A DNA stretch of 63,164 nucleotides, counting the filler, from Chrysochromulina tobinii (Eukaryota): the NCBI GenBank assembly GCA_001275005.1. It is 6 parts of 6 records of this genome, joined end to end, with 100 filler letters (N's around TTAATTAATTAA, not from the genome) between each part and the next. Parts side by side here need not be neighbours in the genome. Positions count along the whole stretch, not along the records: positions 39,466 to 56,262 come from JWZX01001437.1; 5 more parts are not named here. One strand, given 5' to 3'. Positions 29,906-52,900 of this stretch are shown piece by piece. The number at the start of each line of letters is the position of its first letter. The first letter of the stretch is position 1. The notes beneath the pieces were generated by a model. The model did not search any database. It was given only the letters and a program-made list of their open reading frames with translations, and was not told where the DNA came from. Both the position numbers and the translations under genes were made by a program.

Positions 29906-30154
29906 AAGCTTGGGGGAAGAGAGAGCGCCGGTCTAGCATCTGCGCCAGACGGAAGTCGATGCGAAAGGATGCGGAATTTTGTTATCCGTTAAAACGCGCA
30001 GTGAGTCTTTCACACGTCTCTGTGTTCACGGCCGCTTCGCGCTTTTGCTGCATGGCCTCGGCGGCGCGGGGTTGCCGAAGGAGCCCCGCGCGGAAGGCTC
30101 TTGCCTCCTTCCTAGTCTTCCTTCTTTAACGTTTCGCACCAATTCTGTGCTGCC

Positions 30155-31740: not shown

Positions 31741-32543
31741 CGCTGCGCGTGGCTAGATGGGAGTGGATCAGTGGAAGACCCCCTAGGAGATTGATCCATC
31801 GTAGAAGGTCTGGTTCTTAAGGTAATGTGCATGTACGGAATGAAACGCAAACAAAAATCAAAAAACGCAACGCCGGCGCACGGACTTCTATAAGGGCAGA
31901 CAAGTTCAAGTACGAACGTAAGAGCGACTGTACGAACGTGATACGTGTGTGGAACACGCCTGACGGCAGTGCATACGTGGCGATGGGGGGGGCAGGCATA
32001 CAAAGCGTGGCGGTGGCACGATGGTTCTAAGTAAGGTATTGTTGAACCCCAGAACGAGCGTGGTTCGGCGTGGAAGGCACTCCGAATCTCCGATACGTAC
32101 TGCTGCTGCCTTCGCTCGGACTACCGCCGCCACCTCCGCCGCCAAAGTCCGCCGGCATCTCGGCTGCCCCGGCCACGCCCGCGACGGCGCTCGCCGAGGT
32201 GCGGGGAGACGGTGCGTCTGCGTGTATTTTGCGCTTCTCTTCTTGTCGCAGTGCCGAGCCTCTACGGACTACGCGTCTATGCCTGATGAGTATATCGTCA
32301 TCCATCCACACCATCCGTCCGAAATCCATCCTCAAAGAAACTCGTGATGTGAAAAATCTCATCCCGAATGATTGTCAAAAAATCAAAGTTTCACAAAATT
32401 AATGAAGGTCCATATCTACTTTCCAAAAACGGAAGACGTGTTACAGGACGTTTGTTTGCGATTTTTGTCCCCCTGTGTCGTGCACACGGTTGCAGACTGG
32501 AAGAATACTTCGGCTCCGCTTGGCTCCACATCCCCTCGACGTA

Positions 32544-34640
32544 ATGGGCGCCGGCGGCTCCGCTGCTCGACAGCGACGGGATTCTGTCGTAGAGTTCCGA
32601 GATAGTGCCATCAAGCGCCCGTCGTTCAATCGATCGAAAGCCCAGGACGCAGATGCTCAACGCCATATTCGAGCTGGAGTAAAGCACGTTTTCAATACTG
32701 CCGAAGCAGATGACAAGTTGAACGCCGCCTTCTACCGAGTCGACAAGGACAAAAGCGGCTCCATCGATGTGCACGAGCTGCACTCGGCACTCGGGACTCT
32801 CGGTATTCAGCCCGATTCCTTCCAACATACCCTGCAAGTGATGCGCAAATTCAACAAGGATAAATCCGGTGGCCTGGAACTCAAAGAGTTCCGCTTGCTC
32901 GCGAGCTGGATGAAGGAGGAGAGGATTGCAGCCGAGGGTATCTTCAGAAGGTTTGACGAGAACGGTGACGAACGGATCGACGTCATGGAGCTCTGCGCCT
33001 GTCTGGCGCATCTTGAGCTGGCGGACAATCTTGATCAGGCAAAGGCGGTTATGGAAACCTTTAGCGTGGAGAAGAAGGCAACCGGCACGCTGTCCTTCGA
33101 CGAGTTTAACAAGGCTGTCGACCGATGCCGAGCCTTAAAGAGCCACCGCGAAACCTTTCGGTCGTACGACGCGAATCGCGACGGCACCATCGATGTAGCT
33201 GAGCTACTCACCATGCTCCTCGACCTTGGATTGGCCAACTCGGAAGCCCAGGCACGCGACGTGTTGCAGATCTTCGACATCGACGGCAATCGATCCCTCG
33301 ACGTCGCCGAGTTCATCAAATTGGCCGATTCACTTGCGATCTTCCACGAATTTGACAGGAACCAGGATGGCAAGCTCGACGTTCACGACTTGCACTACCT
33401 GCTGCAAAAACTCAAAATTGCGTCCGACTTTGAAACGACGAAGACCATACTGAAGCGGTGGGACAAGAATGGCAACGGCTGCCTGCAGTTCAATGAGTAT
33501 CTAATGTTGAACAAGGAGATCCAAAAGCTGACAAAGTATCTGCACATGCCCTTCTGCAACGGTACATGCGGCTGCCAGTGTAATCCTGCCAATGAGCGGC
33601 CTCAGGCTCAGGCTGCGGCACCTGCTCCGAGCGCTCCTGGTACGCCTCGGCAGTTGAACTCAAAAGCGCCCGCGCCATCAACGTCGGCACCTCAATCAAA
33701 AGCGTCCGCGCCAGGAGCGTCGGCACCTAATCGACCCTCTGGCCCGCCAGCCAAGCTGCCTGCACTGACTGCAACAGCGCCACCACCTTTGGCCACCACC
33801 ATCAATGCTGATGAGGTCTTTCGCAAATTCGACCGGGACGGCGACTCGTCCATCGACGTCTACGAGCTGCACGGTGCGCTCGAAGGTCTGGGCTTGCCAC
33901 CCTACAACTTCTTTCACGCCATCGAGACCATGCGAAGATACGACGACGATGGCGACGGGAAGCTCCAGCTCGACGGATTCCGCCAGCTTGCCGCTGAAGT
34001 ACTGCGTAAGCTGCAGGAGACGGACTCAAGCTTTGTGCAATGCGATGCCGACCGTGACGGCCGTATCAGCACGCGGGAGCTCGTCGGCTCGCTGGTAGCG
34101 TTAAACCTGCAGCAAAGTGCCTTCTTTGCGCCTGAGGTTCTCAGGCAGTTTAGCTGTGATGGCACGCTTCAGCTGCCAGAATACCGCAAGGTGGTCCACC
34201 GGTGCCGTGCATTAGACAAGCACGTCACGACCTTCCGCTTCTACGACAAGGACGGAAGCGGCGGCATCGATGCGGGCGAACTTCACGCGGCCCTGAACGA
34301 GCTCGGGCTTCTGACATCACTGGACCAGGCACGTGAGGTGCTGCTGCGCTTTGACTCGGATGAGAATGGGGTGCTCGACATGCGCGAGTTTTCAAGTCTG
34401 GTGGATACCATCTCTACTTTCCGTCAATTCGACAGGAATGGGGATGGCACCATGGACGTCCAGGAGCTGCACTACGCGCTGATCACGCTTCGAGTGCCGA
34501 TGGAAACCTTTCAGCAGACGAAGGAGATGCACCGCTACTATGACAAGGAAGGAAAGGGCGCGCTGTCTGTCAGCCAGTACCTCGAGCTCATATACGACTT
34601 GCAAAGAAATAGCAGACCTCCAGCGAATCAGGATGCGTGA
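32544..34640 (+). CDS. Multi-EF-hand Ca2+-binding protein (2 x 8 EF-hands), putative N-myristoylation
   Basis: Starts MGAGGS. Has 16 DxDxxGxI/L-type loops (two degenerate) in two halves, separated by CNGTCGCQC and a Pro/Ala linker. Confidence 0.92.
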   Translation: MGAGGSAARQRRDSVVEFRDSAIKRPSFNRSKAQDADAQRHIRAGVKHVFNTAEADDKLNAAFYRVDKDKSGSIDVHELHSALGTLGIQPDSFQHTLQVMRKFNKDKSGGLELKEFRLLASWMKEERIAAEGIFRRFDENGDERIDVMELCACLAHLELADNLDQAKAVMETFSVEKKATGTLSFDEFNKAVDRCRALKSHRETFRSYDANRDGTIDVAELLTMLLDLGLANSEAQARDVLQIFDIDGNRSLDVAEFIKLADSLAIFHEFDRNQDGKLDVHDLHYLLQKLKIASDFETTKTILKRWDKNGNGCLQFNEYLMLNKEIQKLTKYLHMPFCNGTCGCQCNPANERPQAQAAAPAPSAPGTPRQLNSKAPAPSTSAPQSKASAPGASAPNRPSGPPAKLPALTATAPPPLATTINADEVFRKFDRDGDSSIDVYELHGALEGLGLPPYNFFHAIETMRRYDDDGDGKLQLDGFRQLAAEVLRKLQETDSSFVQCDADRDGRISTRELVGSLVALNLQQSAFFAPEVLRQFSCDGTLQLPEYRKVVHRCRALDKHVTTFRFYDKDGSGGIDAGELHAALNELGLLTSLDQAREVLLRFDSDENGVLDMREFSSLVDTISTFRQFDRNGDGTMDVQELHYALITLRVPMETFQQTKEMHRYYDKEGKGALSVSQYLELIYDLQRNSRPPANQDA

Positions 34641-35535
34641 TGCCGAGAGTAGCTGGGGCTGGGGTGACGTGTGGGTGACCTTGAGCTTGTCGGTGATTCG
34701 GTACCAACACGGCAATGAGGGGGGCCATTCAGCTTGCGCATCCACTCATTACGCAGTACCTGACAGTAATGAAGGGACCCCCTGGTGTGTGGTGGGGGAA
34801 TTTCAAGGTGGTGGCTGGTGCCGTCGTCTTCGTATCACGTATGCTGTGGGTGTGAGTTAGGTGACATGTTGAGATGTCTGCTGACCGGACCGTTCTTGCT
34901 TTGTCGATATCTGCTCTTTGCCTGTTGCGTCGCGTGTGTGGCGGTGTGGGTGAGACTGTCTTTCTTGCTTGCAGGAGGCTGTGGGTGACGGTCAGCGCAC
35001 TCGCCGTACACTCGCCGCCGATCGGATCCTAAGCGCAAGGGGGCGCGGGCGGCGGCAGTGCGCCCGGTGGGCCGCAGCGAGCGGAGAGCGGCCAGTGCGC
35101 GGGGCCGGGGCGGGTGCGACCGCCGCCGCGCGCGCGGAGACGCGGAATAGGTGGGATCCCTATTCTAAGTGTGTCAAACACTGTCCATGAATGACTTTAA
35201 ACGAAATGGTAAGAAACTACGATGTGCATGCGGTGACATGCAATGCCCAAGAGCCTGCACGGCGAGAGACTCGAGTGTCGAGACAGTCACAGCCTCGCCT
35301 GAGAGAAGACCCAGGTGGCCGTGTGGCGCTGTGGCCGACGGAGCCGGTTGGTCTTCGCTTCCGACTTCCCTTCACTGTCCCCCGTCAGTCTCCGACACGA
35401 CTCATGGCAACTCAAGGGTCAGGTGTGAGTGTGAAGAAGAGGGGGCCGCCAAAGATGTTCGCTCGCACCGAGTGCTTGGTGCCAGAGAGGTGCATCTATT
35501 CAGCGCATCTATGGACAGAATCTATGCGCTGAAGC

Positions 35536-37240
35536 TTAGGTGCGAAGCGGGGGGTCTGCGGAGACATGCCGTTGACCAAAGGCTGCCGCTCGCCTGTGCG
35601 CCAAGGGACAGAAGGGACAGAGGTGGTCGAGGCGGGCACCGCTCAGTTGATGGAGGAGCGCCGAGGCGAGGTGGCTGTGATCTCGCCGCGATCTCGCGCG
35701 CCCAGGCAAGGCGAGCATGGGCGGCGTGGCGACTGTGGCCAGCGCGAGCGCACCTGCGTGGGGTGACCGATCACCGGCAATCTGGCCCGGGATCGGTCGG
35801 GAGAGGTCGTGTTCCATGCTAATGCTGGTCACGCAGCAACTGCACGCCCAGCGGGTCCAGCGCGAGAAGAAGAAGGTGCAGTCGATCAGCGTGCTCGCGC
35901 AATGATCCATGTTCGAGTTGGCGAGCTGCACGTCGTACCCGATCCTGTCGGAACGCCCCTTGATCGCCAGCTCCAAGTGGATCCTCGTCTGCAGCGCGGG
36001 TGGAATGGGGAGTTCCCCGGTCCCAGTCCAGAGCAGGAGCTGCGAGTGGGGTCGCGAGTCCAGCAGGCGGTCAGAGCACCGCGAGGTCATCTTGCACTCA
36101 GATGCACATTCCACTCAGATGCACTCAGATGCACTCAGATGCACTCAGAGGCACTCAGAGGCACTCAGAGGCACTCAGAGGCACTCAGAGGCACTCAGAG
36201 GCACTCAGAGGCACTCAGAGGCACTCAGAGGCACTCAGAGGCACATTCCACATGCACTCAAGATGGACTCAGATGAGCTCACTACAGCGCTCACCTGCGA
36301 GTCGGGTAAAGCGTCGAGAAGACGATCGAGCACGGCGATCTGACGCTCGGCGAAGCGCACCGACGCCGCAAAAACAACCGAGTTGCCCGGGAGGCTATAT
36401 TCCTTGCACACCTGTGTACGAGAGCCATCGGTCGGGGGTGAGTGCCAGGTCGGACCCTCAGATGGCACTCGGATGGTACTCAGATGACACTCAGATAGCC
36501 ATCAGATGCCTGGGGTGAGTGCCATCTCGGTCAAGGATCACCGATGGGGAGAGGATTGGCAATCTTTCTTTGGGAAGGCTCTTCCGCACCTTGAGCATCT
36601 CGGCGATGTCGGCCTCGGTGTACACTTGCTCAGGCCCGATCGGGCCGACGCTCCAACCGAGCGAGAGCACGGCGTGCGGGCACAGCCGGCGGCAGAGCGG
36701 GATGAAGGCATGCGAGGGCACCGCGGGCGCAAAACGCCTGTTCGGCCCCGGTAGGATGTCGGCGTTTAGCCAGACCGCCTGCCCGTTGGCGTGCAGCTGC
36801 GCCCATCGCTCGGAAAGCAGCTCTAGGCATGGCTCGACGGCGGCGAGCTGCTTGAAGTCGAGCTTCAGGTGTCGCGTGCCATCCGACACGCAGCGCTCGA
36901 GGAACTCGAGAAAACTCAGGTCGGTGTCAGGCACCGCTGCACTGAAGGGTGACGGGTGTGCCATGATGGGCAGGCTACCCGGTCGATCTCCCAGCTTACG
37001 CAGGAGCTGGGCCTGCTCCTCCGTGGCGACCATGATGTCGGCTTCGATCGCGGTGATGTCAGGATTTGCAAGCGCGCGCTCCAGTTTGGAAATCGAGCAA
37101 CAAGAGTGCTCCCAATGCTGCTGCGCACGCGGTCGCGGCGTGTATGGAGGTCCGCAATCGTGTGCCAACGCCAACCCGAGAGAGGCGTGAGACAAACCTC
37201 TCTCGCTTGCCGGCGAGCCCGCATCCGATGATTTGCACAT
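35536..37240 (-). CDS. FAM151/menorin-like (DUF2181) protein; exons 37240-36590, 36411-36295, 36039-35536
   Basis: IEADI, PIMAHP, LKLDFK, WLNADILPGP, LSLGW, YT...I..M, LLLWTG. The C-terminal end is uncertain. Confidence 0.85.
36040..36294 (-). other. GT-AG intron (255 nt) with (CTCTGAGTGC)n repeats
   Basis: CAG|GTGAGC donor; removal gives ALPDSQ|LLLWTG. Confidence 0.85.
36412..36589 (-). other. GT-AG intron (178 nt) with degenerate ATCTGAGTG repeats
   Basis: AAG|GTGCGG...ACACAG|GTG; removal gives EMLK|VCKEY. Confidence 0.8.
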
Positions 37241-37398
37241 GGCAAAGTCCGCTGTCAGGAGAGCCACCTTCGCCGCCGGCCTCTTCGTGACGGGAGCGGC
37301 GGCGCAACTCGTGGCGCCGCTGTGAACGCCTGCGCGTTCGGTTCGTCAAGCGCCTCGGACCCGATGCCGGTTTTCTTCGGTGCTATCGGATAGTGCGC

Positions 37399-37530
37399 AA
37401 CCCGGACTTTGGAAACGTACAGGTGCGTAACCCGGACTTACATTGTACCGGTAGCCGGGGTGCCTAACCCGGACTTCGAGGTGTGAAGTCCGGGTTAGGC
37501 AACTTTACCGTTTATCTAAATCCGGGTTCA
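37399..37530. repeat. Cluster of AACCCGGACTT motifs with a perfect 17-bp inverted repeat
   Basis: TGCCTAACCCGGACTTC (37461-37477) pairs with GAAGTCCGGGTTAGGCA (37485-37501). Confidence 0.85.
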
Positions 37531-37965
37531 CCTTTAGACCTTTTCCTGATGCCCACTGTGAGAAGGTCGGTTTCGTTGCGGTCCCCCCGCGCTCCCGTCT
37601 CAGCGGACGGCTCCGCAGCCATTGCATTGGTTGTTTTCGCAAAGCCACTCCACTGATAAGCATAAGGGTGAAGCCTTTGTTATCCTGAAGAGCATCTCGA
37701 GACTACGTGAACTCATGAAGCCCGAATAATTGTCAAACTCATCAGATAATGTTCATAATTGGAAAGTATGAGACGCTTCGACATCCAAATACGGAAAACG
37801 TCATAGGTACCGGTACCAATACAGCACCGAGCCGCGCCGGTCGCAGACGAAAGCATCGAGCGGATATCTCTCGCGTTTCTGTCTTGTCTCTTGATTTTCA
37901 ACGTGCACGCGGTTGCAGACTGAGGAATACTTCGGCTCCGCTTGGCTCCACATCCCCTCGACGTA

Positions 37966-39365
37966 ATGGGCGCCGGCGGCTCCGCTGCTCGACAACGACG
38001 GGGTTCTGTCGTAGAGTTCCGAGATCGTGCCACCAAGCGCCCATTCAATCGATCGAAAGCCCAGGACGCAGATGCTCAACGCCATATTCAAGCTGGAGTA
38101 AAGCACGTTTTCAATACTGCCGAAGCAGATGACAATACTGCCGCCTTCTACCGAATCGACAAGGACAAAAGCGGCTCCATCGACGTGCACGAGCTGCACT
38201 CGGCACTCGGGACTCTCGGTATTCAGCCCGACTCCTTCCAACATACCCTGCAAGTGATGCGCAAATTCGACAAGGATAAATCCGGTGGCCTGGACCTCAA
38301 CGAGTTCCGCTTGCTCGCGAGCTGGATGAAGGAGGAGAGGATTGCAGCCGAGGGTATCTTCAGAAGGTTTGATAAGAAAGAGGTGACGAACGGATTGACG
38401 TCATGGAGCTCTGCGCCTGTCTGGTGCATCTTGAGCTGGCGGACAATCTTGATCAGGCAAAGGCGGTTATGGAAACCTTTAGCGTGGAGAAGAAGGCAAC
38501 CGGCACGCTGTCCTTCGACGAGTTTAACAAGGCTGTCGACCGATGCCGTGCCTTAAAGAGCCACCGCGAAACCTTTCAGTCGTACGACGCGAATCGCGAT
38601 GGCACCATCGACGTAGCTGAGCTACTCACCATGCTCCTCGACCTTGGTTTGGCCAACACGGAGGCCCAGGCACGCGACGTGTTGCAGATCTTCGACATCG
38701 ACGGCGATCGATCCCTCGACATTGCCGAGTTCATCAAATTGGCCGATTCACTTGCGATCTTCCACGAATTTGACAGGAACCAGGATGGCAAGCTCGGCGT
38801 TCACGATTTGCACTACCTGCTGCAAAAACTCAAGATTGCGTCCGACTTTGAAATGACGAAGACCATACTGAAGCGGTGGGGCAAGAATGGCAACGGCTGC
38901 CTGCAGTTCAACGAGTATCTCATGTTGAACAAGGAGATCCAGGAGCTAACAAAGTATCTGCACATGCCCTTCTGCAACGGTACATGCGGCTGCCAGTGTA
39001 ATCCTGCCAATGAGCGGCCTCAGGCTCAGGCTGCGGCACCAGCTCCGAGCGCTCCTGGTACACCTCGGCAGTTGAACTCAAAAGCGCCCGCGCCATCACC
39101 GCTGGCACCTCAATCAAAAGCGTCCGCGCCAGGTGCAGCGTCGGCACCTAATCGACCCTCTGGCCCGCCAGCCAAGCTGCCTGCACTGACTGCAACAGCG
39201 CCACCACCTTTGGCCACCACCATCAATGCTGATGAGGTCTTTCGCAAATTCGACCGGGACGGCGACTCGTCCATCGACGTCTACGAGCTGCACGGTGCGC
39301 TCGAAGGTCTGGGCTTGCCACCCTACAACTTCTTTCACGCCATCGAGACCATGCGAAGATACGAC
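37966..39365 (+). pseudogene. Frameshifted duplicate of the EF-hand gene, truncated by contig end
   Basis: Near-identical to 32544 onward. Net +2 insertion near 38375; D to G changes in EF loops (KLGVHD, WGKNG). Confidence 0.85.
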
Positions 39366-39465
39366 NNNNNNNNNNNNNNNNNNNNNNNNNNNNNNNNNNN
39401 NNNNNNNNNTTAATTAATTAANNNNNNNNNNNNNNNNNNNNNNNNNNNNNNNNNNNNNNNNNNNN
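39366..39465. other. Artificial contig linker
   Basis: N44-TTAATTAATTAA-N44. Confidence 0.99.
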
Positions 39466-39736: not shown

Positions 39737-39942
39737 TATCACGGGGCATGTGTGTGCTCAGTGCGCCAAATCGTCCTATACGGGAGTACTTGTTAGTTTA
39801 GTCAGATTTAGCCAGTAACCACTGTGGGGAATTCCCAGTGGGAAATTAGTGGGTACGTAGACACTTGTGTTTTGTGGTTGGGTGGAGCCATGGTGTCTCT
39901 CATTCTCTTTCTCGCCTCGTTTGGCCCTGCGTCCACGAGATA
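39737..39942 (+). repeat. 5' LTR (TATC...GATA)
   Basis: No differences seen versus the 3' LTR by eye. Confidence 0.95.
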
Positions 39943-42900
39943 TGGCTTCCCTTCCGGGAATTCTTCGGCGGCGCCTGTTGACGTTTTCGCCACTATCACC
40001 CCCGTCTCCAGTGAAGATGTGGTTTTCCCCCCGCCCCACTGTGCGGATCTGTGGAATTTGTCGACCCCTAATGCGGAGGAGACCCAGTCTTCTTTTTCGC
40101 TCGGCTTTGTTGACCCCCAATGCGGCATGTTTGCCTCGCGAGGGTTTCCGCCGCACCATGCGATGCCGGACTGTCGCTGCCGTCTCGACGGCGTGTCGGG
40201 CTGGCTTCCTCGTCAGCGCCACTTCGCCGCTGGGCCACATTCGCCCGCTGAAGCCGCCGTGGTACTTACGTCTTCGAGCTGCGGCCACGGCCTTGCCGCC
40301 ACGCTCCACTGGTTCGAGCGTGCAGGCCAGCCCGTCCAAGATCCCAGCTTGGCGGCATGCCGGCGCGTCTTCCTCGAGATCACCGTGTACCTGGCTATGC
40401 ACCCACACCGCGTATATGATGTGGGCGTCATGTTTATGCTTCTGGCCTGGTTTATGATCCAGCCCCGTGCATGGGCCCGGTTGGTGCTCCTCATTTCGCT
40501 TGGTACCCTGAGTGCTGCCACCCACCTCTTCAACCTCGTGCTCCAGTCTTGTTTGCACGATGGGCGTGAGCGTGGGAGCGCCCGTACTGGTCGAGGACGA
40601 TGGGTTGATCACAACCACGCCCTGGGCATGCAGGGTGCTTCGGGCGCATGGGCCATCTGGCGCATGGCCGTCGTCACCACCTTCCTCCCGTTGGCCTTAC
40701 TCCTCCTAGCCCCACTTGTGGCTGCTAACTATGTCATCGCCACTCTAATCAGGCTGGCCCGCTTGTCGCTTGCCTGGTTACCCGCCTTGTCACTAGCCGG
40801 TGTACTCGTCCTCCTCATGGTTGCCTACTATGTTGCCACCACGCTCGCCGCGTTGATTGTTGACATGGTACTGTTCACATTCTTGGTCACTCAGATCGTT
40901 GGCTTCATCGCCCTGGCCAGTGTTGACTCGGTCACGACGCCCCTGATCTGGTTTCTGATCGAATGCGTCACTCTCGCTGGTACCATCACGATCGCCACCA
41001 CCCGTCGCTTGGCCACCACCCTGGCGTGCCTGGCCAGCGCTTTCGACCACTGGAATGCCCTTCGTGACCCAGCCATCGCCGAGCTCGCGGGCGCCCTGCA
41101 TCGCGGGTGGGTCGGTAAGAAGCGCCGCCCCACCCGTGATAATCGCCACGACATTCGGCGGGCGCTGCGTGATCTCACGGCTCCCGCTCGGCTCGACAAA
41201 CTGGTGCAAACCCATCGCTACGTGATGATGGTATTCGGCGATGGTGATCCTTCGGTGCCTCACCGTCGCCAGGTCGCTTCCGTGTACGCGCGCGTCGCCC
41301 TCATCGTGCTGACGATCATTACCGCCCGCGCCTGTCGTTTTGGCTCGCGGGCGATCAAGCGCACCGAGGGCTTCACGCTCAACGTCGGGCTAGCCATCAC
41401 GGTTAGGCTCCTTCGCACTCGCGACTGCCTGGTTGCCCACGCCTGCTTTATGTCTGGACGCTCGGGCATAGCCCGGCGCGCCCTCGACTCCCTGCTCGTC
41501 GCTACCTACCTGCGTTTTCGCTCCCCAATGGCGGTGATGATGCCACGTATGAGACCCTTATGGATCTTGGCCATGCTCCCCCTCGTGAGCTCCGCCGGTG
41601 ACGAGAATAAGCGCGTGCCGAGCTTCAGTGGTGAGCGCATCGATTTCACGGCGTGGTTCATGCTCTTCTCGGCCTACGTCGCCTATAAGCTCGTCTCCGC
41701 CGCGCCCCTCATCGCTGGCACCAGGCCGAGGCCTCCTGCTGCGCCATCGCCCACGATGGGACGGGTGGCGCCGGAGCCTCCCGCTCCTCCTGCGCCCATC
41801 CTCGCGACCGATGGTAGCACCACTAACCAGACTGAGATTGACGCCGCCAACGCCGCCCGTCTAGCCTGGATGAACACCGCCCAGGTCGTCCTTAACGCCG
41901 CGGAGATCAAGGAAGCGAACGACGCACGTGAGAAGTGGGCGAACGACAACACCCAGCTCTACGGTCTCCTCGTCCAGGCCATGCCGGCGTGGTTGGTCAC
42001 GTCCCTCTACAACTCGCACCTCAATGACGGCGTCGCTGCGATCGAGTACTTGCGTAAGGCGTTCGATGCCAACTCGGGTGACGGCGGAGACCATGCCGCC
42101 CACTTAGCGAGATTGCAGTCCCGCACGATCGACGCACGCAGCGATATCTCGGAGGCTGATCTCCGCCGTCAATTCGACATGATGATGTCGGAGTCGGCCG
42201 CTATCCAGCGCACAGGCAACTCCCCACCGTCCGAGGCCACGATGATTGCGTTCTATGATAACGCACTGCCCATTGCCTATACCACCATGCGCCAGCACGC
42301 ACGACGGGCTAGACATACGACGTTGCTCGCGCACCATATGGACATCATGAGCCAGGTGCGCGCTGAGGCCAACTCTCGTGCGCCTGCTCCTAACGCCTTC
42401 GCTGCCTCCATCGCGCCGGCCGGCGCGACGCCACTTAAGCCGGCTACCAACGCTGACGCTGACAAAACTTGCCTTCGCTGCGGCCGCCTTGGCCACACTC
42501 GTCGAACCTGCAGACAGGCAAAGGCGCCCTGTACGCACTGCGGTGCCGATCATCTCCCGGACTTCTGCCCTAAGGGCACGGGTGGGCGCCGCCGTGAGCT
42601 CTCTGATGTGCTACGTGGCGTTCTCGATCGTGACGTGCAGCGCGGCTCAGGCCCCGCCGCGAAGCATGGGCGGAAGCCCCCGACTTATGCGGCTGCGGCC
42701 GCCCAGGCCTCAGCCCCGGCCCCGGCCTCGGCTTCCCCGCCTACACCGTCACCGCCAGCTGCCGCGCCGTCGATTGCGCCGACCGCGCCAGCCGTGCCAT
42801 GGCAACAGCCCACGCCAACTGCCCACGCTGCCGCTGCTCAGGCCGCCTCTATCCAGGCTGATGCGCAGTCCGCCGCCAACGCATACGCCGCCGCCCTTCG

Positions 42901-45900
42901 CGCGTTCGGCTACGGTCTGATGGCTCATCTCGACTTTCACGCCTACTTTGGCCTCTCCGCTGCCTGGCCGCGCCGTTCCCTGCCGGCCGCCCCACCATTC
43001 TGCAGCTCGGAGGACGCCGCCGTCGACTCTATGGCATCCTTGATGATCGTAAACTCCGTCGACAAACTGTACCGTGTGACTGATGCATCCCCGAAGCTCG
43101 AGATTGAGACTGCTGATGGCCTCGTCCCCGTCAAGGCCATCGGCGTTGCCCTCGCGTACTTGCGCGTTGGCCGTGCCTGGGAGTGCTACGAGATACCCGA
43201 TGTCATGGTGCTCGAGAACTGCACCTTCACGCTCTATTCAACTCGGGTCATGTACGCGCTCTTCGGCTTCAAGCACGCGTTCGAGTCCGGCGTCATATCT
43301 GTCCCTGGTGCTCACGACATTGCTATCTATGACACCGGCGCGGCCTACGTGACTCCGATCGCATTTGTCCCGCACGGCTCACCTCGGCCGGAGGTGGTAC
43401 ATCGCGCCACCGACCGCGCTCTCGATGCGTTCCGCGCCGCTTGTGCCGGGCGCCCCGCCGCACGCCTCGCCGAACGCAGTGCCGGCACTTCCCAGGCTGT
43501 CCTGCATCAGCGCCTCGGCTTCCCATACCACGAGCAGTGGAAGCGCGTGCCTGCTTCCACCATCGACCATGGTTTGCCTCCCAACGCTCAGGCCACGCCT
43601 GATCTGCCCACGCGCGATGCTGTCTCGCGAGGTCGTGCACGCGCCCTACCATTCCTGCGCAAGCCATTGGAAGACGTGCGGCAGCCTCCACCCGCGGCGG
43701 TGATTTATATGGACTTCGCCGGTCCCCTCCTGGCCAGCATCTTCCATCGATACACCTGCTACGTCTGCTGCGTCGACGCCGGCTCGGGCTATGGGCGTCT
43801 TTACCCTGCCCACCATATGACGGCCCTTGTTGCCGCTGGCGCTCTTGAGTCGTACTCGGCTGAGCTTGCCTCGCTCATGGGCTTTCACGGCGGTTTCAAG
43901 CCCCTCGTTGTTCGCTCCGACCAAGGCAGCGCTTTTGTCTCCTTTTATTTCCGCGAGTTTCTCTCCGCCCGCCAGATTCATCAATCGCTGGCATGCACTT
44001 ACACGCCGCAACAGAACTCACATGCCGAGCGTTTCTTCGGGGTTGTGTTCGCAACCGCTCGCGTCCTGCTGGCTGCCGCCAATCTACCGCCGATTTTCCA
44101 TCCTTTCGCTCTCCAGACGGCCGCGTGGATTCACAACCGCCTCCCGCGACCCTCCCGCGGTAATGATTCGCCGTACTATACCCTCACCCGTTCGCTGCCT
44201 TCACTGGCGATGCTCTATTGTTTTGGATGCCTGGCTGCCGTCGTCATCCCCGTTCCCCGCCGCGAGGGCGATCGTCACTTTGCCGATCGTGGCGAGCACG
44301 CCATCTACCTCGGTCCTTCTGAGGTCAGCCCTGGCCACGTGGTTTACTTGCTTTCTTCTCGTCGCATCACCACTGTGGCCAAAATCCATCCGTGGGAGGA
44401 TCAGTTCCCTGGCATTGCCGGCGAGCGGTACTCGTGGTTCACTGATGATACCCCGCCGCCGCCGTCAGAGGGGCCCGCCGTCCCGACCGCCGATGTACCG
44501 ACCGCCGCCCGTGACGGCCCCACGAGTCACGGCCCTACGGCCATCCCTGACGTTCCCGACGAGGCACCTACGCCTACCTCTGCCACCACCCCAACTCCGC
44601 ATCCGCCTCCGCTTCCACCTGCTGTATCGGTACCTACGCCCCCGGCAGTTGGGTCCGGAGGGGCTGTAGCGCCAGGAGGGGCGCCTGCCACGTCAGCAGT
44701 TGGGCCCGGAGGGGTCACGCCAGGAGGGGCGCCTGCCACGTCAGGAGGGGCCACGTCAGGAGGGGCTGCCCCACAGCGATCAGCCCGACCCAGAGGTGAG
44801 CTCAAGAAACTCGAGACCAAGACGACCGTGAGCCCACCGGATGCCGCCGGAGCTACTCCTCGCCGCGCAGGTTCTCGAGTTGGATCGTCTGTGCGTTATG
44901 GCCAGATCGCCATGCATTCTGCGATGAGCCTCTTCGCTCTTACCGCCGTGGCCGCCGCCAACCTGCGCGCCCCGATTTCACTTGGTTTCGCCTTCACTTC
45001 CACCATCTCGGCAGTGGACGAGGCCTTCGGCGGCGAACCCCTCGATAGCCAGCCCGACTCTTGGCTTGTCGATGCAGCCGCTCTCGCTGCTACGGCGGCT
45101 ACCCTGACCATCACTGCCGATCTGGGCGAGCTGGACGTCCCTAAGTCTTTTCGTCAGGCTATGCGCAGCCCGCAGCGTGACTATTGGCGTGAGGCCATCG
45201 CCAAGGAGCTGGCTGGACTGCTCGCCCTTGAGACGTGGGAGATGGTACCTGCTAGCTCGATGCCTCCTGGTGCCAACCTGATGCATTGTCACTACGTGTT
45301 CGCAGTCAAGCGTAAGGCGGATGGATCCATCGAGAAGTTCAAGGCGAGGCTCGTCGCCGACGGTAACACCCAGAAGTACGGCGTTGACTTTGACCGGGTG
45401 TTCGCAACTGTGGTCAAGACATCCACAATTCGCCTCGTTCTTCTGCTTGCCGCGGCTCGGGATTATAATCTCTCCTCCATTGATATTCGGCAGGCCTACT
45501 TACAGAGTCTCCTTGACCCCAACGTGCCACTTTACATGCGCCCGCCCCCGGACGTGTTCCCTTTCGACCAGCATGGGAACCCGTTGGTGTGTAAGTTGCG
45601 GCGATCACTTTACGGCCTCAAGCAGGCTGGCCGGGAATGGGCCGCTCTCTTCTCCTCCTTCCTCATTTCGTGGGGCATGACGCGATCGACCATCGATCCC
45701 TGCCTCTACGTTTTCCGGGCCGCAGAGTCCATCCTCTGGGTCTGTGTCTACGTTGATGACGCCCTCATCGCTGACAACGACCCCGAGCTTCGCGCCCGCT
45801 TTGTCACCGACCTATCCGCACGCTTCCCTACTGAGGACAAGGGAGAGCTCAAATGGATTCTGAGTGTAGCGATTGCGCGGGATCGCAAGGCTCGCACCCT

Positions 45901-46750
45901 CTCGATGTCGCAGGAGCTATACGTCGCCGACTTGATCACCAAGTTCGGCTCCTTCCTCGACGCGTCTGTCACTCGCACTTTTGACACGCCCATGGAGGAG
46001 GGATCGGTGCTCTCGGCCTCGGATCAACCTCAGATCGGATCCGAGGCTCACGCGGCTATGGCGGCTTCCCGCGACGTTTATATGTCGCTCGTTGGTGGGT
46101 ACTTGTGGCTCGCGAACATGACTCACTTCCATCTGGCTTACCCGGCCGGCCAGTTGGCACGTTTCCTCACCAACCCGGGGTTGCCGCACTACCGCGCCGC
46201 TCTGCGTTTGCTCGCCTACCTCCAATCTGTGGGGTCCCGGCCGCTTGTGTTCGCCCCCAACAGTGTGCGAGGCTTGGACACCTACGTCGACTCGAGTTGG
46301 GCGACTCGCTTCTCGGTGAGCGGCTGCCTGATCTTCTATCACGGGTGCTTGTTCCACTGGTTCTCGAAGATGCAAAAGTCTGTCTCCTTAAGTTCCGCTG
46401 AGGCCGAGTATTTTGGTGCGATGATGGCGGCCAGGGATTTGATTTTCGTGCGTGATCTGCTCATCGAGCTCGCCATCCCGCTTGAGGGCCCCAGTGTGAT
46501 GTGGTCCGATTCCAAGTCTGCTGTCGACATGTCTCGTGATCCGGTGGCGTTCAAAATGACCAAGCATATCTTGCGTGCGGCGGAGTTCCTTCGCGATCTC
46601 GTAGCTCGTCTGGTCATTGAAGTACGACACTTACCGGGGCGTGTGATGATTGCCGACCTTCTGACTAAGGCTGTGGCCCGGGTCGTATACCACGAGCTTC
46701 TTCGTCTCTTTGACGTCTACGCCGCCACAGGTGTGGTGTGCCCCGATTAA
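39890..46750 (+). CDS. Copia Gag-Pol polyprotein with ~570-aa hydrophobic N-terminal extension
   Basis: CLRCGRLGHTRRTC zinc knuckle; integrase MDFAGP / RSDQGSAF / PQQNSHAER; RT KARLVA, LYGLKQA, YVDD; RNase H DSSW, SSAEAEY, ADLLTK. The first ATG (GCCATGG) lies inside the 5' LTR. Confidence 0.93.
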   Translation: MVSLILFLASFGPASTRYGFPSGNSSAAPVDVFATITPVSSEDVVFPPPHCADLWNLSTPNAEETQSSFSLGFVDPQCGMFASRGFPPHHAMPDCRCRLDGVSGWLPRQRHFAAGPHSPAEAAVVLTSSSCGHGLAATLHWFERAGQPVQDPSLAACRRVFLEITVYLAMHPHRVYDVGVMFMLLAWFMIQPRAWARLVLLISLGTLSAATHLFNLVLQSCLHDGRERGSARTGRGRWVDHNHALGMQGASGAWAIWRMAVVTTFLPLALLLLAPLVAANYVIATLIRLARLSLAWLPALSLAGVLVLLMVAYYVATTLAALIVDMVLFTFLVTQIVGFIALASVDSVTTPLIWFLIECVTLAGTITIATTRRLATTLACLASAFDHWNALRDPAIAELAGALHRGWVGKKRRPTRDNRHDIRRALRDLTAPARLDKLVQTHRYVMMVFGDGDPSVPHRRQVASVYARVALIVLTIITARACRFGSRAIKRTEGFTLNVGLAITVRLLRTRDCLVAHACFMSGRSGIARRALDSLLVATYLRFRSPMAVMMPRMRPLWILAMLPLVSSAGDENKRVPSFSGERIDFTAWFMLFSAYVAYKLVSAAPLIAGTRPRPPAAPSPTMGRVAPEPPAPPAPILATDGSTTNQTEIDAANAARLAWMNTAQVVLNAAEIKEANDAREKWANDNTQLYGLLVQAMPAWLVTSLYNSHLNDGVAAIEYLRKAFDANSGDGGDHAAHLARLQSRTIDARSDISEADLRRQFDMMMSESAAIQRTGNSPPSEATMIAFYDNALPIAYTTMRQHARRARHTTLLAHHMDIMSQVRAEANSRAPAPNAFAASIAPAGATPLKPATNADADKTCLRCGRLGHTRRTCRQAKAPCTHCGADHLPDFCPKGTGGRRRELSDVLRGVLDRDVQRGSGPAAKHGRKPPTYAAAAAQASAPAPASASPPTPSPPAAAPSIAPTAPAVPWQQPTPTAHAAAAQAASIQADAQSAANAYAAALRAFGYGLMAHLDFHAYFGLSAAWPRRSLPAAPPFCSSEDAAVDSMASLMIVNSVDKLYRVTDASPKLEIETADGLVPVKAIGVALAYLRVGRAWECYEIPDVMVLENCTFTLYSTRVMYALFGFKHAFESGVISVPGAHDIAIYDTGAAYVTPIAFVPHGSPRPEVVHRATDRALDAFRAACAGRPAARLAERSAGTSQAVLHQRLGFPYHEQWKRVPASTIDHGLPPNAQATPDLPTRDAVSRGRARALPFLRKPLEDVRQPPPAAVIYMDFAGPLLASIFHRYTCYVCCVDAGSGYGRLYPAHHMTALVAAGALESYSAELASLMGFHGGFKPLVVRSDQGSAFVSFYFREFLSARQIHQSLACTYTPQQNSHAERFFGVVFATARVLLAAANLPPIFHPFALQTAAWIHNRLPRPSRGNDSPYYTLTRSLPSLAMLYCFGCLAAVVIPVPRREGDRHFADRGEHAIYLGPSEVSPGHVVYLLSSRRITTVAKIHPWEDQFPGIAGERYSWFTDDTPPPPSEGPAVPTADVPTAARDGPTSHGPTAIPDVPDEAPTPTSATTPTPHPPPLPPAVSVPTPPAVGSGGAVAPGGAPATSAVGPGGVTPGGAPATSGGATSGGAAPQRSARPRGELKKLETKTTVSPPDAAGATPRRAGSRVGSSVRYGQIAMHSAMSLFALTAVAAANLRAPISLGFAFTSTISAVDEAFGGEPLDSQPDSWLVDAAALAATAATLTITADLGELDVPKSFRQAMRSPQRDYWREAIAKELAGLLALETWEMVPASSMPPGANLMHCHYVFAVKRKADGSIEKFKARLVADGNTQKYGVDFDRVFATVVKTSTIRLVLLLAAARDYNLSSIDIRQAYLQSLLDPNVPLYMRPPPDVFPFDQHGNPLVCKLRRSLYGLKQAGREWAALFSSFLISWGMTRSTIDPCLYVFRAAESILWVCVYVDDALIADNDPELRARFVTDLSARFPTEDKGELKWILSVAIARDRKARTLSMSQELYVADLITKFGSFLDASVTRTFDTPMEEGSVLSASDQPQIGSEAHAAMAASRDVYMSLVGGYLWLANMTHFHLAYPAGQLARFLTNPGLPHYRAALRLLAYLQSVGSRPLVFAPNSVRGLDTYVDSSWATRFSVSGCLIFYHGCLFHWFSKMQKSVSLSSAEAEYFGAMMAARDLIFVRDLLIELAIPLEGPSVMWSDSKSAVDMSRDPVAFKMTKHILRAAEFLRDLVARLVIEVRHLPGRVMIADLLTKAVARVVYHELLRLFDVYAATGVVCPD
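39943..39960 (+). promoter_or_regulatory. Primer-binding site, 18 nt
   Basis: TGGCTTCCCTTCCGGGAA directly follows the LTR. Its complement UUCCCGG-AAGGGAA-G-CCA has the form of a tRNA 3' end. Confidence 0.8.
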
Positions 46751-46790
46751 TATGTACGGTCGCATGGCTTTCGCCGCAACCGTGAGGGGC

Positions 46791-46996
46791 TATCACGGGG
46801 CATGTGTGTGCTCAGTGCGCCAAATCGTCCTATACGGGAGTACTTGTTAGTTTAGTCAGATTTAGCCAGTAACCACTGTGGGGAATTCCCAGTGGGAAAT
46901 TAGTGGGTACGTAGACACTTGTGTTTTGTGGTTGGGTGGAGCCATGGTGTCTCTCATTCTCTTTCTCGCCTCGTTTGGCCCTGCGTCCACGAGATA
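46791..46996 (+). repeat. 3' LTR, preceded by short purine tract GAGGGG
   Basis: Direct repeat of 39737-39942. Confidence 0.95.
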
Positions 46997-49900
46997 CGCA
47001 CGAGCGTGCTCCCACATGGCGATGGCGGCGCTCACGTGCACGTTGAGCGAGCGCAGCAGCCCGCGCTGTGGGATCTCGACACACTGATCGACTTCAGCCA
47101 GCAGCGATGCGGGCACGCCCGTTCCCTCCGCGCCCAGCAGCAGCACCGTCTTCTCGAGCGCACGCGGTGATCTCCCACGCGACCGGCGAGTGGCTGCGGC
47201 CTGTGTGAGCAGCTCATTCGTAAAGGTGAGGCGGCGGGCGGCCCCGGCGGGGAGGCTCCTGACGAGATTGAGCGCGTCATCCTTTTTCATGCCGGCCATA
47301 CTCTGGCCATTGACTGCAAGCAACGTCATGCCTATGATGATGCCCTTTTGCTGTGCCAGCGTGCCATCCACCACGTCGTTCACCACGATGGCACCGCTTG
47401 CGTGATCGCCTAGCCCGAGCCCAATGTGCTTCCCAGGCTCGAAGTCGTACTCATACTGAGAGGCGAGCTCGTACGGATGAGTGGTATTCACACGGATGGT
47501 ATTCACACCTCGCTCGTACGGATGAGTGGTCGACGCCTGCTCAGCGCCGTCGTGAGCACCCAGCATCGAGTAGTACTCTTGCAGAGGAACGGATCCCGCC
47601 GCCTGCTCCAGCGCCACGATGCGCCATCCTGCCGCTCGGCGGGCCCGCAAGTACCTGGACAGCTCCGCCGGCTTGACCTCTTCCATCGGCAGCCAGCGCT
47701 CGGCGCCCAAGCTCAACCCTTTGAAAGCCTCGTGGCTGGCAAGTCGCTTGTCGGGGAGCACGAGCGCTGCCGCGCCGAAGATCTCGGCGCTCCGGCAGAT
47801 GCCGCCGAGATTGGTTGGCTTGTCGAGGAGCGAGGCGACTACGATGAGCTCGTGCGCGCGCCGCTTGGACTGCACCGCCGTGGTGCGCAGGTCGGCGAGC
47901 TGTGCATGCATGGGGGCGAAGGAGTCGGCGTGCGAGACAGCCCCCTCGTCTTCAAGCGCGCCGCTCGCCACTGCTTCTGCTGCCGCAGTCGCATCCTCCT
48001 CAGATTCGGCGCCTGATTGCCTCCGATTGCGCCTGGTTGCCTCCTCATCCGCCTCCTCGTCCGCGGCCGCCGCTGCGCTGAGCACATCAAACACAAGAGG
48101 CTCGACATTCCACCAGCCATGACCGCCGAGCGCCGTCTTGCGCTGTGCCACTTGGTGAGTGGCGCGGCTGGTGGCGGTGGCCGCAGGGCTGGCTGCGGCG
48201 GGGGCGAGGAGGGGCTCGATGCCAGCTAGAGCTGACGAAACTGGAGCTGACGAAACGCTGCTGGCGGTTACTGGAGCTGACGAAACGCTGCTGGTGGTTG
48301 TGCCACGCAAGGCAGCGAGCTCTCCCCGTAGGTACTCCGTCAGGGCCAGCCGGCGCTCTGACGCTTCCTTCTGAAGCGCGGCGGTCTCCTCCTCCTTACT
48401 CGCGTGCACCAGCGCCGACATCTGGCGCCCCAAACGCTCTTGGGCGGACACGGGGGCAGACTCGCCATCTCCCGCGCCCGCCGCCAAGGCCGCGCCTCGC
48501 GCGTCGTACAAGGCTGCCGAGGCGGACCGCGAGTGCGCCGGCAGCCAGAGCAGCGGGTCTATGGCGGCAGTGGCGGCGACAATCTGCGGCTGCGTGGCGA
48601 AGAAGGTACCGAGGGTCGCTAGAAGCGCCGGTGGTGCCAGAGCGCCGTCGCGAGCGCCGTCGCCATCCGTGGCAGACGGAGCGACGGCGGGGGTGCCGAC
48701 GTCCGCGCGCGCTGCAGCAGCCGGGGTGCGCCTCATGGACGCAGCCGCATCGAGATCGTCCGAAATCGTGGCGTCGGGGGTCAGAGCAGCCAGGCGAGAG
48801 AGCACCCCGATCGACAGCAGCCGCGCGGTATGGAATGTGCACGTTGCCCAGCCGAGAAGGTGCGGCAGCACTGTGTTCATGGCAGCCTGGCGCGAGTCCG
48901 GCGGCAGCGCGACGAGGGCCGCGCCAACGATCAGCACGGCGGAGGCAGCGGCGTCGCGGGATAGGGTAGGATCAGCCACGAAGTTGCAAAGGACCGTTGG
49001 GGCCGTCCGCGCGTCGCTCAGCACGAGCGCCACTGCAAAGCTCTCCATGTACTGCCTGACACGAGGTAACGGCTTCTCGGACAGCAAGCGCCACACGCAG
49101 CTGGCCGCCGCCTGCGCCGGTGCCCCAAGCTGTGGAAGCCACGGGGCTAGTAAGCTGAGTGCTTGCCAGGAGCGTAAGCAGCGACGTGCTCCCTGCGTCT
49201 GTGGTAGATACCACTTGGGGAAGCTTGCATCGGGTGAGGCGACGGAGTCGAGGAGCAAAGCGGTGACGGCGTTGAGGAGGGCGAGTGCGCCGTCGTTGCT
49301 CGCGCCTGCGGCCAACGACGCCTCCTCTCGCAGCGGCAGCTCCAAAAGCAGCCGTAGTGCGAGCGCCCTCACGCGATGCGCCGCGGCACGGCGCTGGGCG
49401 TCCGCACCGCCGGCCATGAGGGCGTCCAGCAACGCCTGGATACCCTCATCCTCCGCAGAGGCGCACCCATCGACCACAGGAGCGGCGGCGGCGCTGGTGG
49501 TAGAGGCGCGACTGCACGTGGCGGCAGAAGACTGCGAGTCTGCAGGCACGGCAAGGGCCAGATCGGCACGGCTCACGCTCATGACTGCCCGTGTGGACAG
49601 CCGCGGCGCAAGGTCGTCATCCAACGTGGAGAGCAGCGCGGTGCTGCCCACCGGCAAGGCCGCATCCCCATGCAGCAAGAGCTCGTGTATGCGAGAGGCC
49701 CATGGGAGGCAAGCGCGGGGCTGCTCCAGAACGGCGTCGCACAGACGGGAGGCGGCGAGCTGTGCGGCAAACGGACGGGCAGCGCCGAGGCCGTGTAGGA
49801 AGTCGAAAGCTCCGAAGCTCTCAGCTTGAAGGCCAGTGCAGTGCAGCACGGGCACGCTGAGGAGGGCGTTGGCAACGGCTGCACAGAGGCTCGGCTGCAG

Positions 49901-52900
49901 AGCGGTCGATCGCACCAGACGAAGACTCTCCAAGCAGGCGCGGTGGAGAGCGCGGACGTGCGAGACCGTTGACGAGACCGACGAGACCGCGCCGTCCGTA
50001 GCGGCCGCGCCATCTGATTGCCTCTGATTGCCTCTGATTTCCTCTGAGTGCGAGACCACGCCGTCCGTAGCGGCCGCACCATCAACGACAGAGTGGCGGA
50101 GGGCGATGCGGATCAATGGCCCAGCACAGCGGAGAAGCGCATGCAGCGCCTCGGCATCGCCCGACGACTGCTTCAGAGCGGCCGCGCAGGATGCCAGCCA
50201 CGTCTGATGCCGTCGATCCACAAGCTCACTGTCGCGTACCACAGCCGGCGCGATGCCTTCGCGCACGCGTATAGGTGGCGGGGGCGATGATCGGCCGCTG
50301 ACGGTCGCCACTGACGGTGCATCGCCTGCAGCGTCCAGCAGGGCGGCTAGCGCAGCCCATTGCGCCACCTCCGAGCGGTATCGCAGTCGCAAGTCGACCC
50401 CGTTGCCATCGCCGTCCATGCTTGCGAAGCGTCCCGCGCCCTCCGCGCAAGCCGCCAGCATTGTCTCTCGCGCCGACTGCATGGGCTTAGTAAGGAGTGG
50501 ATGCACGGCGACGATGCCTGGTGCGCCGTCGTGAGCAAGTTCCAGCGCCCTCGCACCATACATCCCGGCGCGCACCACGGCGGAGAGAGCGTCAGCGGCC
50601 ATCAGTCGCACGCGCGGCGCTTGGGGTCCGGCCGCGCTCGCAAGTTCGGCACTCAGGCCTTGGAGCAGCTGCTCGCCCACAAACGTGACGATCGAGCGAA
50701 CCTCCGGCACGGCCGCTGTGCATGCAGCCAGGGCGCCGGAGCAGTGGACCACTCGAGCACAGAGCCAGTCAGTCTGATCAGGTGCACCGACCAGGGATGA
50801 GTCGGAACGGCCTGTGCGTGCTTCGGAAAGGGCGTTCTCGACGACGCCGCAGCAACCTTCAGCACAGCCAGAGAGCATATTGATCACCACCGAGCGCCAA
50901 GCTGGCTCGTCCGCTGCGGCAGCGCCGTCAATGAGCGCATGCAGCAGCACTAGAAGCCGCGGCGCGTGCAGCGGGTGCAGATAGGCTCGCGTGTGCACGT
51001 TCACCAGCTGCGCGCACAGTGGTCCCAGTGCAAGGGCCACACGCTGCGCGGTCGGACACAAGTCGCACGCCGCGCGGAGCGTCTCTGCCTCCTCTGCACT
51101 GTCGCTGAGATCGGAGGCGGCAGGCACGAACGGCTTCGGCTGAGCGGTGATAGGAGATGTGATGGCTGCTGTGATGGCCGCCGTGATGGCCCCGCCCTGG
51201 CTCGCCCCTTTTCGGCGATTGGTATAGCGCTCCAAGTATTCTTGGACCGCTTCAGCAACCTCCGCCTCCAGCCACGCTCCGCCATCTGCACGTCTCGGGC
51301 GCTCAAGCCACTGGCGCACTCGCTCAACGGTCCGTTGCGGCAGTCGAGATGCCGCGGGCACGCTGCGTACGAACGCCATAATAGGCAACAGCCCCAGAGA
51401 TGACGCGTCACCGAGCGCGAGCAGCGCCTTCAGACCGACACGCCACAGGCGCGCCTGCGCCACCCGCCCGTGCGAGCGGCCCGCCTGCTGCATCACGTCA
51501 CGCAGCGCGTAAAAGCCCCCCTGGCTCAGGACGCCGGGAGCTTCGGGCGTCGAGGCGAGGGCTGTGAGCAGGTGCTCGCACGCATGCACCTTAGGCGAGT
51601 CTTGGCAGGCGCGTAGCAGTGACTCCACCCACGTGCCCGCAGCCTCGACGCCGGCGCGTCGCGCCAAGTAGGACACGTACAGAGGCAGCGCGTCTCGGAC
51701 GGCGGCCGCCAAGGGTGAGAGAGGTCCGGTCGAGTCGCCCCTCCCAGCACCACGATAGTTGCCGTCACCAGCGTCGTCGCCGCTATTCCCGCCGCCGCCG
51801 ACGCCGCCGCCGCCGCCGCCGCTGAGGTCCACCCGCCACGGCGCATGCGAGTGCAGGAGCAGCGGCAGCAAGTGCTCGGCCATGAAGCGCGCGGGCGGCA
51901 CCACGGCGTGCGCCTCTGCAGCTGCAGAGCCAGTGGTTTCGGAGGGCTCTGGAGGTTCGGGCGCCTCGAGGGCAGCCGCGACATGCTCCAGGAGGGTGAG
52001 AGCCGCCCAGTAGCGCACGGCGACATTAGCATGGCCAAAGGCCCTGCGTAGCAGCAGCTCGACCCACGGCCACGAGGGAGGCGGCTCCAGGGCCTCGCGC
52101 GAAGATGAGGGCGAGGTCACTGCTGCATCGCTGTCCGCTGAGGCATTTGTCCAAGTACCGGTAGAAGTACCGGCCGGAGGTGCGACATCGCCTAACCACC
52201 ACGAAGGCTGTGTCGGCCACACAGGCTGGATGAGATGGACGTCGTACGCGGCCTCGAGAGAGCCATAGACGGCCAGGAAGGTCTCCCACGCCGCCACGTC
52301 CGCAGCCTGCGCGTGGGCGGTGCTGACGATCAAGGCCGCCGCCTTTGCCTCCTGGGAGGTTCGATTCGCACCGTCGCGGCGGAGGGCATGCAAGAGGAGC
52401 GCGTTCGGAGTGGGTGGCGCACTCGCCATCGGCGCCGCTTCGAGAGCGGCGCGCCACGCGCCACGCAGCTGCTCATGCAGGGCCGCGGCGGTGGTGAAAC
52501 AATGGAGACGAACGGGTTCTGATTCTGACGCGCACCCCCGCGCCAGCCACCCCCACACCGCGACTGCGCTCGCCTCTACATCCAGATCGGAGCTGCACAG
52601 CAGCGAGAGTGCCGCCGCCCGCGCCGCACGGAGCGGCGACAATGAGAGCTGGGCTCCCGCAGCAGCGAGCGCAGCGCTGGCTTCCGCCGTGGGTGATAGC
52701 CGGTGCAGTCGCAGCGCAAGGCTTGCTGCCGCCACCGCCGTCATACTGCTCGCGCCGCTCTTGGCGCCTTGGCACGCGATCTCATCTGTGGTGGTGGGCT
52801 GCAGCGCACTCATCGCCGCTGTCCACAGTCCAGGGATCGCATCTGCAGTGACGAGCTTCGCAATAGCTTCGCAAGTCATGTCGAGGACCACAGCTGATAC

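Follow-up and report, generated by a model that had tools for sequence, protein, structure and literature searches.

The TRM3/TARBP1-type tRNA G18 2′-O-methyltransferase gene of Chrysochromulina tobinii has gained a segment in which a duplicated stretch of host sequence encloses a short tandem repeat, and relative to the host mRNA this repeat runs opposite to its copies in introns. On balance, we favor an origin in which a staggered break or a template switch was patched from a distant repeat array, leaving a reversed, in-frame gain of 69 nt that is likely kept in the mRNA, adding residues to a predicted protein loop.

The site lies in a window of 63,164 nt (the whole stretch of DNA that was analyzed), which is eukaryotic with a GC content of ~0.6; the published C. 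tobinii genome is given as 63.4% GC (PMC4580454). The window contains five joints, each composed of 44 N, a 12-nt linker with stops in all frames and a further 44 N (6745-6844, 27500-27599, 39366-39465, 56263-56362, and 60149-60248). The joined pieces are separate contigs, and the linker at 39366-39465 connects TRM3 to DNA that does not adjoin it in relatives. At 27050-27499, a long 9-nt tandem array, GAGGGTCCC, with ~32 copies runs into an assembly gap.

Host gene and structure of the insertion

TRM3 is encoded on the minus strand as a single continuous frame of 2,119 aa (46865-53221), assigned by Pfam, a PDB match and homologs. The stop-free frame around the site spans 46865-53380, no intron lies within the TRM3 frame, and the gene start agrees with homologs. 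The protein has a C-terminal SpoU_methylase domain (E 6.6e-25) downstream of a long helical N-terminal region, as is expected of TRM3; its Pfam match to the TARBP1 domain is weak, and its best PDB match is a TAR RNA loop binding protein (2ha8, E 2.8e-41).

Two further features of this gene were observed. The SpoU domain was matched in two stretches, and a weak PDZ-like domain (aa 1990-2042, E 1.6e-4, below the Pfam cut-off; window ~47220-47415, minus strand) appears to be inserted within it. A full-length copia-type LTR retrotransposon with RVT_2 and integrase in a 2,312-aa frame occupies 39737-46996 on the plus strand, with identical 206-nt LTRs, a 5-nt target duplication, and ends of the form TA...TA in place of TG...CA. 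The element sits in the last TRM3 codons, where the final two residues and the stop are swapped for ~44 LTR-derived residues, and it is absent in loci L003 and L004.

The two copies of the duplicated flank, at 49982-50014 and 50051-50083, are identical at 31 of 33 positions, lie 36 nt apart and have a start-to-start distance of 69 nt; the coordinates, identity and 36-nt repeat filler reported in the first-pass annotation were reproduced exactly. When TRM3 was searched for 33-nt self-matches at a spacing of 34-300, the best reached 31, compared with a maximum of 25 and a mean of 22.5 in 100 codon shuffles. As the shuffles never rose above 25/33, the duplication is not a product of chance. The filler between the copies (50015-50050, minus strand), which is reversed with respect to intron fillers, is built of a 10-nt unit that reads TGATTGCCTC on the plus strand and is repeated 3.9 times; it is translated in frame as the peptide HSEEIRGNQRQS at aa 1058-1069, ~730 residues ahead of the SpoU domain. 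The net gain is thus +69 nt (33-nt duplication plus 36-nt filler), and the claim that it keeps the frame was borne out by the location of the site inside the stop-free minus-strand frame. A direct repeat of host sequence therefore flanks foreign filler on both sides, as in break repair.

Sequence comparison together with orthologs indicates that the second copy in the direction of the mRNA (49982-50014, minus strand) is likely the original sequence. The copies differ at two positions, each a C/T change at a CpG; one of the changes is silent, and the other, Ala to Val, is derived in the first, mRNA-5′ copy (50051-50083, minus strand), since the empty orthologs described below read DGAVS. The target site is bordered by a 9-nt tandem repeat (49971-49989) whose copy number varies among homologs. 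No inverted repeats of at least 14 nt were found at the insert site and none was evident within the 36-nt filler, nor did the target show a hairpin beyond the background of shuffled sequences (z -0.32 to 0.45).

A structure model of the region built from 7 sequences (mean pLDDT 57) places the insert in a stretch of pLDDT <50 flanked by two helices, a low confidence that may reflect only missing alignment, as sequence depth is lowest there. If kept in the mRNA, as is likely, the duplication and filler would lengthen this predicted loop by 23 residues.

Empty and filled sites in relatives

A search with the TRM3 region retained 4 proteins from 7,979 candidates, and their clusters provided 27 listed sequences, of which 11 span the insert site and 16 are fragments missing the site. 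The site is filled in five of the 11 homologs (P0001, P0006, P0007, P0010, and P0011). Five others, at ~92% identity (P0002, P0003, P0022, P0024, and P0027), have a single copy and no filler, and the distant outgroup P0004 (46-53%) also lacks the insert, with a continuous frame there. The search for empty sites proposed in the first-pass annotation was therefore successful at the protein level, where relatives with an empty site, as break repair predicts, account for 6 of the 11; as DNA, no empty allele was found, all 4 of the loci recovered from 541 metagenome stretches being filled. The filler is 36 nt long in each of these four loci, with two substitutions between alleles, and 12 aa long in each of the five filled proteins. 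The empty ~92% proteins have an additional 7-aa repeat of their own bordering the same spot, and thus do not represent the exact allele that preceded the insertion.

The presence of six empty and five filled homologs is indicative of gain and not of a grown intron, and because a doubled flank can arise by gain alone, the structure must have begun as a gain, although the empty cluster may later have lost it through a deletion from one repeat to the other. An old intron in orthologs, which would have pointed the other way, was looked for and a single filler-free copy in a continuous frame was found instead; since the empty homologs are ORFs called on DNA and read straight through, there was no old intron at this site. 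The earlier proposal that the repeat arrived by insertion rather than by expansion of an existing intron is thus supported by the single copy without filler in relatives, and the empty orthologs together with the duplicated flank argue against growth of an old intron. A tree in which the insert columns were kept leaves the filled rows unresolved and was not used for polarity.

Duplication and filler could also have been acquired in two events, with a tandem duplication in a slippage-prone stretch and a later capture of filler, in which case there would be no strict target-site duplication. Plain tandem duplications are indeed abundant in TRM3, and the variable 9-nt repeat borders the site. However, duplication without filler or filler without duplication was seen in 0 of the 11 homologs, and the coupling of the two recurs across the window and in the P0077 family (see below), so that we consider two separate events highly improbable.

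RNA evidence at the insertion site

RNA contigs from runs X1-X4 (4 of 21 runs) were compared with TRM3 and with the region 27600-39365. In the latter they revealed 7 joints, 5 of them canonical, removing all 4 filler clusters and one filler-free intron. These four clusters all have the intron orientation: 28688-28846 (minus strand) is skipped in 4/4 runs, by contigs from a diverged allele; 30796-30890 (plus strand), which has a 27-nt duplication, is skipped in X4; and 36040-36294 and 36412-36589 (both minus strand) are each skipped in X1, X3, and X4. One X2 contig enters the true intron at 30796 unspliced, and 37425-38210 has no RNA cover in any of X1-X4. Two related multi-EF-hand genes are located in the same region, at 32406-34637 and 37924-39365; RNA contigs cover the first and almost none the second.

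At the TRM3 site, a candidate 66-nt GT-AG intron can be drawn at 50014-50079 (minus strand), one of 18 frame-keeping GT/GC-AG pairs listed. Its removal had been considered possible in the first-pass annotation; the pair does exist, but no joint skipping 66 nt is present among the 32 TRM3 records listed (there are 307 others), in which both listed joints are loops inside the repeat. The donor junction is bridged unspliced by contigs from X1 (50014-50236) and X3 (50014-50172), and the acceptor junction is crossed by contigs from X3 (to 50042) and X2 (to 50028), with overlaps of 29 and 15 nt that fall below the 31-nt rule. X4 has no record over the insert among the 32 listed. Thus, the check for retention in RNA that had been suggested earlier gave, at low depth, unspliced junctions in 3 of the 4 runs, with 4/4 intron-type clusters skipped; the whole insert is bridged by no listed contig. 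The depth of TRM3 contigs is 2-4, and as rare forms are lost during contig assembly, low-level splicing may have escaped detection. The ends of a spliceosomal intron are therefore present, while their removal was unseen although control introns were removed in the same runs.

The splice signals of the candidate are weaker than those of all five RNA-confirmed introns on each of three measures. The donor GT is preceded by TG in the candidate vs. AG in the confirmed introns, the pyrimidine share is 0.33 vs. 0.44-0.83, and the upstream AG is found at -10 vs. -16 to -53. One may still ask whether the insert is a young, partly used intron of 66 nt, with its donor in the duplicated copy, its acceptor in the last unit, and one extra codon left behind. 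Besides the in-frame GT-AG pair and the low RNA depth, at which contigs lose rare forms, this would fit the donor hexamer GTGCGG, which is identical to that of the confirmed intron 36412-36589, and the fact that the would-be intronic mRNA-5′ copy carries the GT together with the derived Val codon, the one change of known direction. We regard a partly used intron as quite improbable, given that four runs yielded no 66-nt joint, that junctions are unspliced in three of them in which true introns are skipped, that the acceptor is weak and no AG stands ahead of the donor, and that the filler has a constant length in all loci and filled proteins. The TRM3 insert is likely kept in the mRNA and not spliced.

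Orientation of the repeat relative to the mRNA

We analyzed the orientation of the repeat with host strands set by Pfam (Methyltransf_32, filamin-domain, and menorin genes on the minus strand, GH28 on the plus strand). The TGATTG/CTGAGTG form is on the mRNA strand in 9/9 intron-type clusters of the window, the strand of those below 21856 having been read by eye, whereas the GCAATCAG form is on the mRNA strand in both of the in-frame TRM3 fillers, at the insert and at 48009-48054. The description of the insert as opposite to all the intron cases consequently holds relative to the host mRNA, but not relative to the window strand. The first-pass annotation had made its reading depend on the existence of other antisense cases, and others were found, namely 48009-48054 and a candidate in the P0077 family.

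This asymmetry may be explained by stop codons, which the sequence places in every frame in one orientation and in none in the other. When the unit is repeated in silico, stops are present in 3/3 frames in the TGATTG orientation and in 0/3 in the reversed one, and the real 36-nt filler shows the same asymmetry; the four spliced filler introns contain stops in all three mRNA frames. All three frames stop because a period of 10 brings every position of the unit into each frame within 30 nt, and the unit contains TGA. A different array was observed at 22374-22601 (minus strand) in the Methyltransf_32 gene, where a 15-nt repeat with a filler-like CTGATT on the mRNA strand is in frame as (QQADS)n; this array stays open because its period of 15 holds TGA out of frame.

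The filler peptide was also searched for in database ORFs, using 59 of 981 candidates and the best 150 of 587, which gave 196 distinct ORFs. Among these 196, an 11-residue filler peptide was present in 27 and the full 12-aa consensus in 1. Most of these ORFs are probably wrong-strand readings through introns, and for this reason the search cannot count reversed coding inserts. Pfam families were detected in 2/59 and 4/137 of them, and only two ankyrin ORFs bear on the question of orientation. In these two, P0056 and P0135, both outside the window, the peptides suggest that reversed filler lies inside introns, and reversed filler would therefore not always be coding. Each of the two has one ankyrin repeat per apparent exon, on the same strand as the reversed filler.

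Other duplications with filler

TRM3 contains two more sites of this kind. A second reversed filler, identified from repeats and homologs at 48009-48054 (minus strand), is in frame, adds ~45 nt and has a short flanking repeat. It is older, being common to both close clusters, is amplified 2-4 fold in whole 15-aa units in one of them, and is bridged gap-free by an X4 contig. The third site (47468-47530, minus strand) consists of 18-nt copies around a 27-nt filler of another type, for an in-frame gain of +45 nt; it is lineage-specific, being absent in 6/6 of the cluster-2/3 proteins listed, and is bridged gap-free in X1, X3, and X4.

Elsewhere in the window, five filler clusters in intron orientation are located in the Methyltransf_32 gene (21179-22953, minus strand) and served as comparators at the level of sequence only. 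The clusters at 21179-21358 and 28688-28846 are nested, with two layers of duplication plus filler each, which suggests repeated hits or re-duplication. Duplication lengths at the other sites of the window are 13, 14, 18, 27, and 45 nt.

A second gene with a retained reversed insert may be represented by the P0077 family, a candidate whose coding strand is putative. In-frame filler is located between two ALSPRA copies in 17 of its 19 sequences; it is 19 aa long in 16 of these and 39 aa long in the other, and the remaining 2 sequences have one flank alone. The 19 sequences examined included no empty allele and matched no Pfam family. Members of the family (P0077, P0083, P0224-P0237, and P0240) are uncharacterized. 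It should be noted that all reversed in-frame cases were found inside ORFs, so that their 3n length is ascertained by the search itself.

Source of the filler and mechanism of insertion

The filler in TRM3 is a fragment of an array that occurs widely. Compared without gaps with the rest of the window and the loci, the 36 nt have their best match, with 4 mismatches, within longer arrays, and no single donor locus was found in the same material. In the 16.6 kb of L003 there is no donor array except the poorly matching 48009-48054, which was rejected as a local template on account of 10/36 mismatches; the template was thus probably not local. Microhomology at the junctions amounts to 1 nt on one side and 2 nt on the other (4-6 when compared with the variant units at 36466-36505).

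Searches for a parent element ending in the repeat were negative in the window, in viral contigs and in prokaryote contigs. Viral contigs gave 0 matches to a 21-nt pattern and 30 single matches to a 17-nt pattern, none of them in a filler array, and no relatives of P0077 were present among 107 viral stretches. The 5 matches in prokaryote contigs were two-unit stretches in unrelated contexts and were not used. Telomere identity of the repeat was set aside: a literature search gave no support for it, and the units are mixed. Fillers in the window have mixed units, variable length, no fixed ends, and no fixed duplication size. Comparison across the window and loci showed no end-to-end similar copies with defined boundaries at the TRM3 site, and a fixed short duplication, terminal inverted repeats, and, at low RNA depth, splicing out were likewise not seen; the features that define introners are therefore lacking. 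Insertion with target duplication is a demonstrated outcome that does not in itself imply a mobile element.

We propose that a staggered DNA break or a replication template switch would have opened the site in TRM3, and that a repeat array at another genomic location would have served as the template for filling the gap, with doubling of the 33-nt flank. Candidate enzymatic routes are polymerase-theta-type end joining, fill-in plus NHEJ, or replication template switching. As such a process would act on DNA, either orientation should be possible, and selection may then sort the orientations. A forward insert in coding sequence would be spliced or lost, every frame stopping within 30 nt, while a reversed insert, stop-free and with poor splice signals, would survive where the gain is 3n and the protein loop tolerant. 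The second TRM3 site, which is in frame, bridged in X4, and amplified by 15-aa units, fits this stop-asymmetry view.

Alternatively, a reverse transcriptase may have written the filler, either by target-primed copying of a repeat-bearing RNA (a LINE/SINE tail or intron RNA) or by telomerase-like addition. Target duplications of variable length, as TPRT would leave, are what we observed (13-45 nt here), and reverse transcription also allows either orientation; RNA libraries contain the repeat in abundance (its bin has a summed depth of 281-543), and non-LTR introners have been described (PMC12130899). On the other hand, there is no poly(A) and no constant end, the mixed units are unlike a fixed template, the third TRM3 insert has a different filler, and no parent element was found in the 63 kb and loci searched. 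We therefore consider reverse transcription unlikely as the source, although DNA-templated and RNA-templated copying predict much the same.

Reverse splicing would place filler in the sense direction only and therefore cannot explain the reversed TRM3 copy. The reverse splicing mechanism is reviewed in PMC3443670. More tentatively than for the TRM3 site itself, and with the chances against it only slightly the greater, we suggest that one ongoing process, free of transposons and acting throughout the genome with a strand-asymmetric 10-nt repeat, might generate introns from forward copies, which are rich in stops and splice-like signals, and loops (EAIRGNQRQS/EALRGTQRHS) from reversed ones, which are open in all frames. 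The reversed copies would then be unspliced fossils of the raw insertion, which would exclude reverse splicing as the only route.

Comparison with known systems and implications

The closest parallel is provided by Daphnia pulex, in which introns have been described as gained when filler DNA was added during the repair of staggered double-strand breaks (PMC4202315; reviewed in PMC3443670). As in Daphnia, the insert lies between direct repeats of the adjoining exon and close relatives are without it. However, the Daphnia repeats are 4-12 bp and their fillers mostly of no known source, whereas in TRM3 the duplication is 33 nt, the filler recurs throughout the genome, and the added residues appear to stay in the protein instead of being spliced out. 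Small tandem duplications arising by fill-in at staggered breaks (PMC8355091) offer a route from two offset nicks to the 33-nt duplication, although they were described in mammalian cells and that abstract does not extend to foreign repeats captured in between.

Introners share with our sites the recurrence of related inserts, the target duplications, and the derivation of one splice site from the duplication; some introner classes work in both orientations and some add codons. Their target duplications are 3-9 bp (PMC9860276), and those of marine Chrysochromulina introners are 4 bp (PMC9860276; bioRxiv 10.1101/2020.10.14.339549; PMC12130899); Chrysochromulina is not named in the main text of PMC12130899. 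In contrast to introners, which have end-to-end similar bodies and often terminal inverted repeats, the inserts here vary in length, in their ends, and in duplication size, and no splicing of the reversed copy was seen. Rickettsia palindromic elements (PMC10969869) are similar in that a repeat family adds peptides in frame to unrelated proteins, but they are bacterial, palindromic, MITE-like elements of ~150 bp, with no splicing alternative, tandem 10-mer, or long duplication. Neither this repeat nor its reversed in-frame copies are described in the literature that we searched, and the supplementary introner tables (PMC9860276, PMC12130899) may bear on this point.

It is not settled how new introns originate, and from spliced examples by themselves one cannot tell whether insertion senses the direction of the transcript. 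A backward, unspliced copy in an intron-free gene argues against both the growth of old introns and reverse splicing as the sole route. While there is one well-supported locus so far, the reversed case enables a genome-wide comparison of orientation with 3n length and splicing, and the reversed TRM3 copy gives a tangible example of where new low-complexity segments of proteins can come from.
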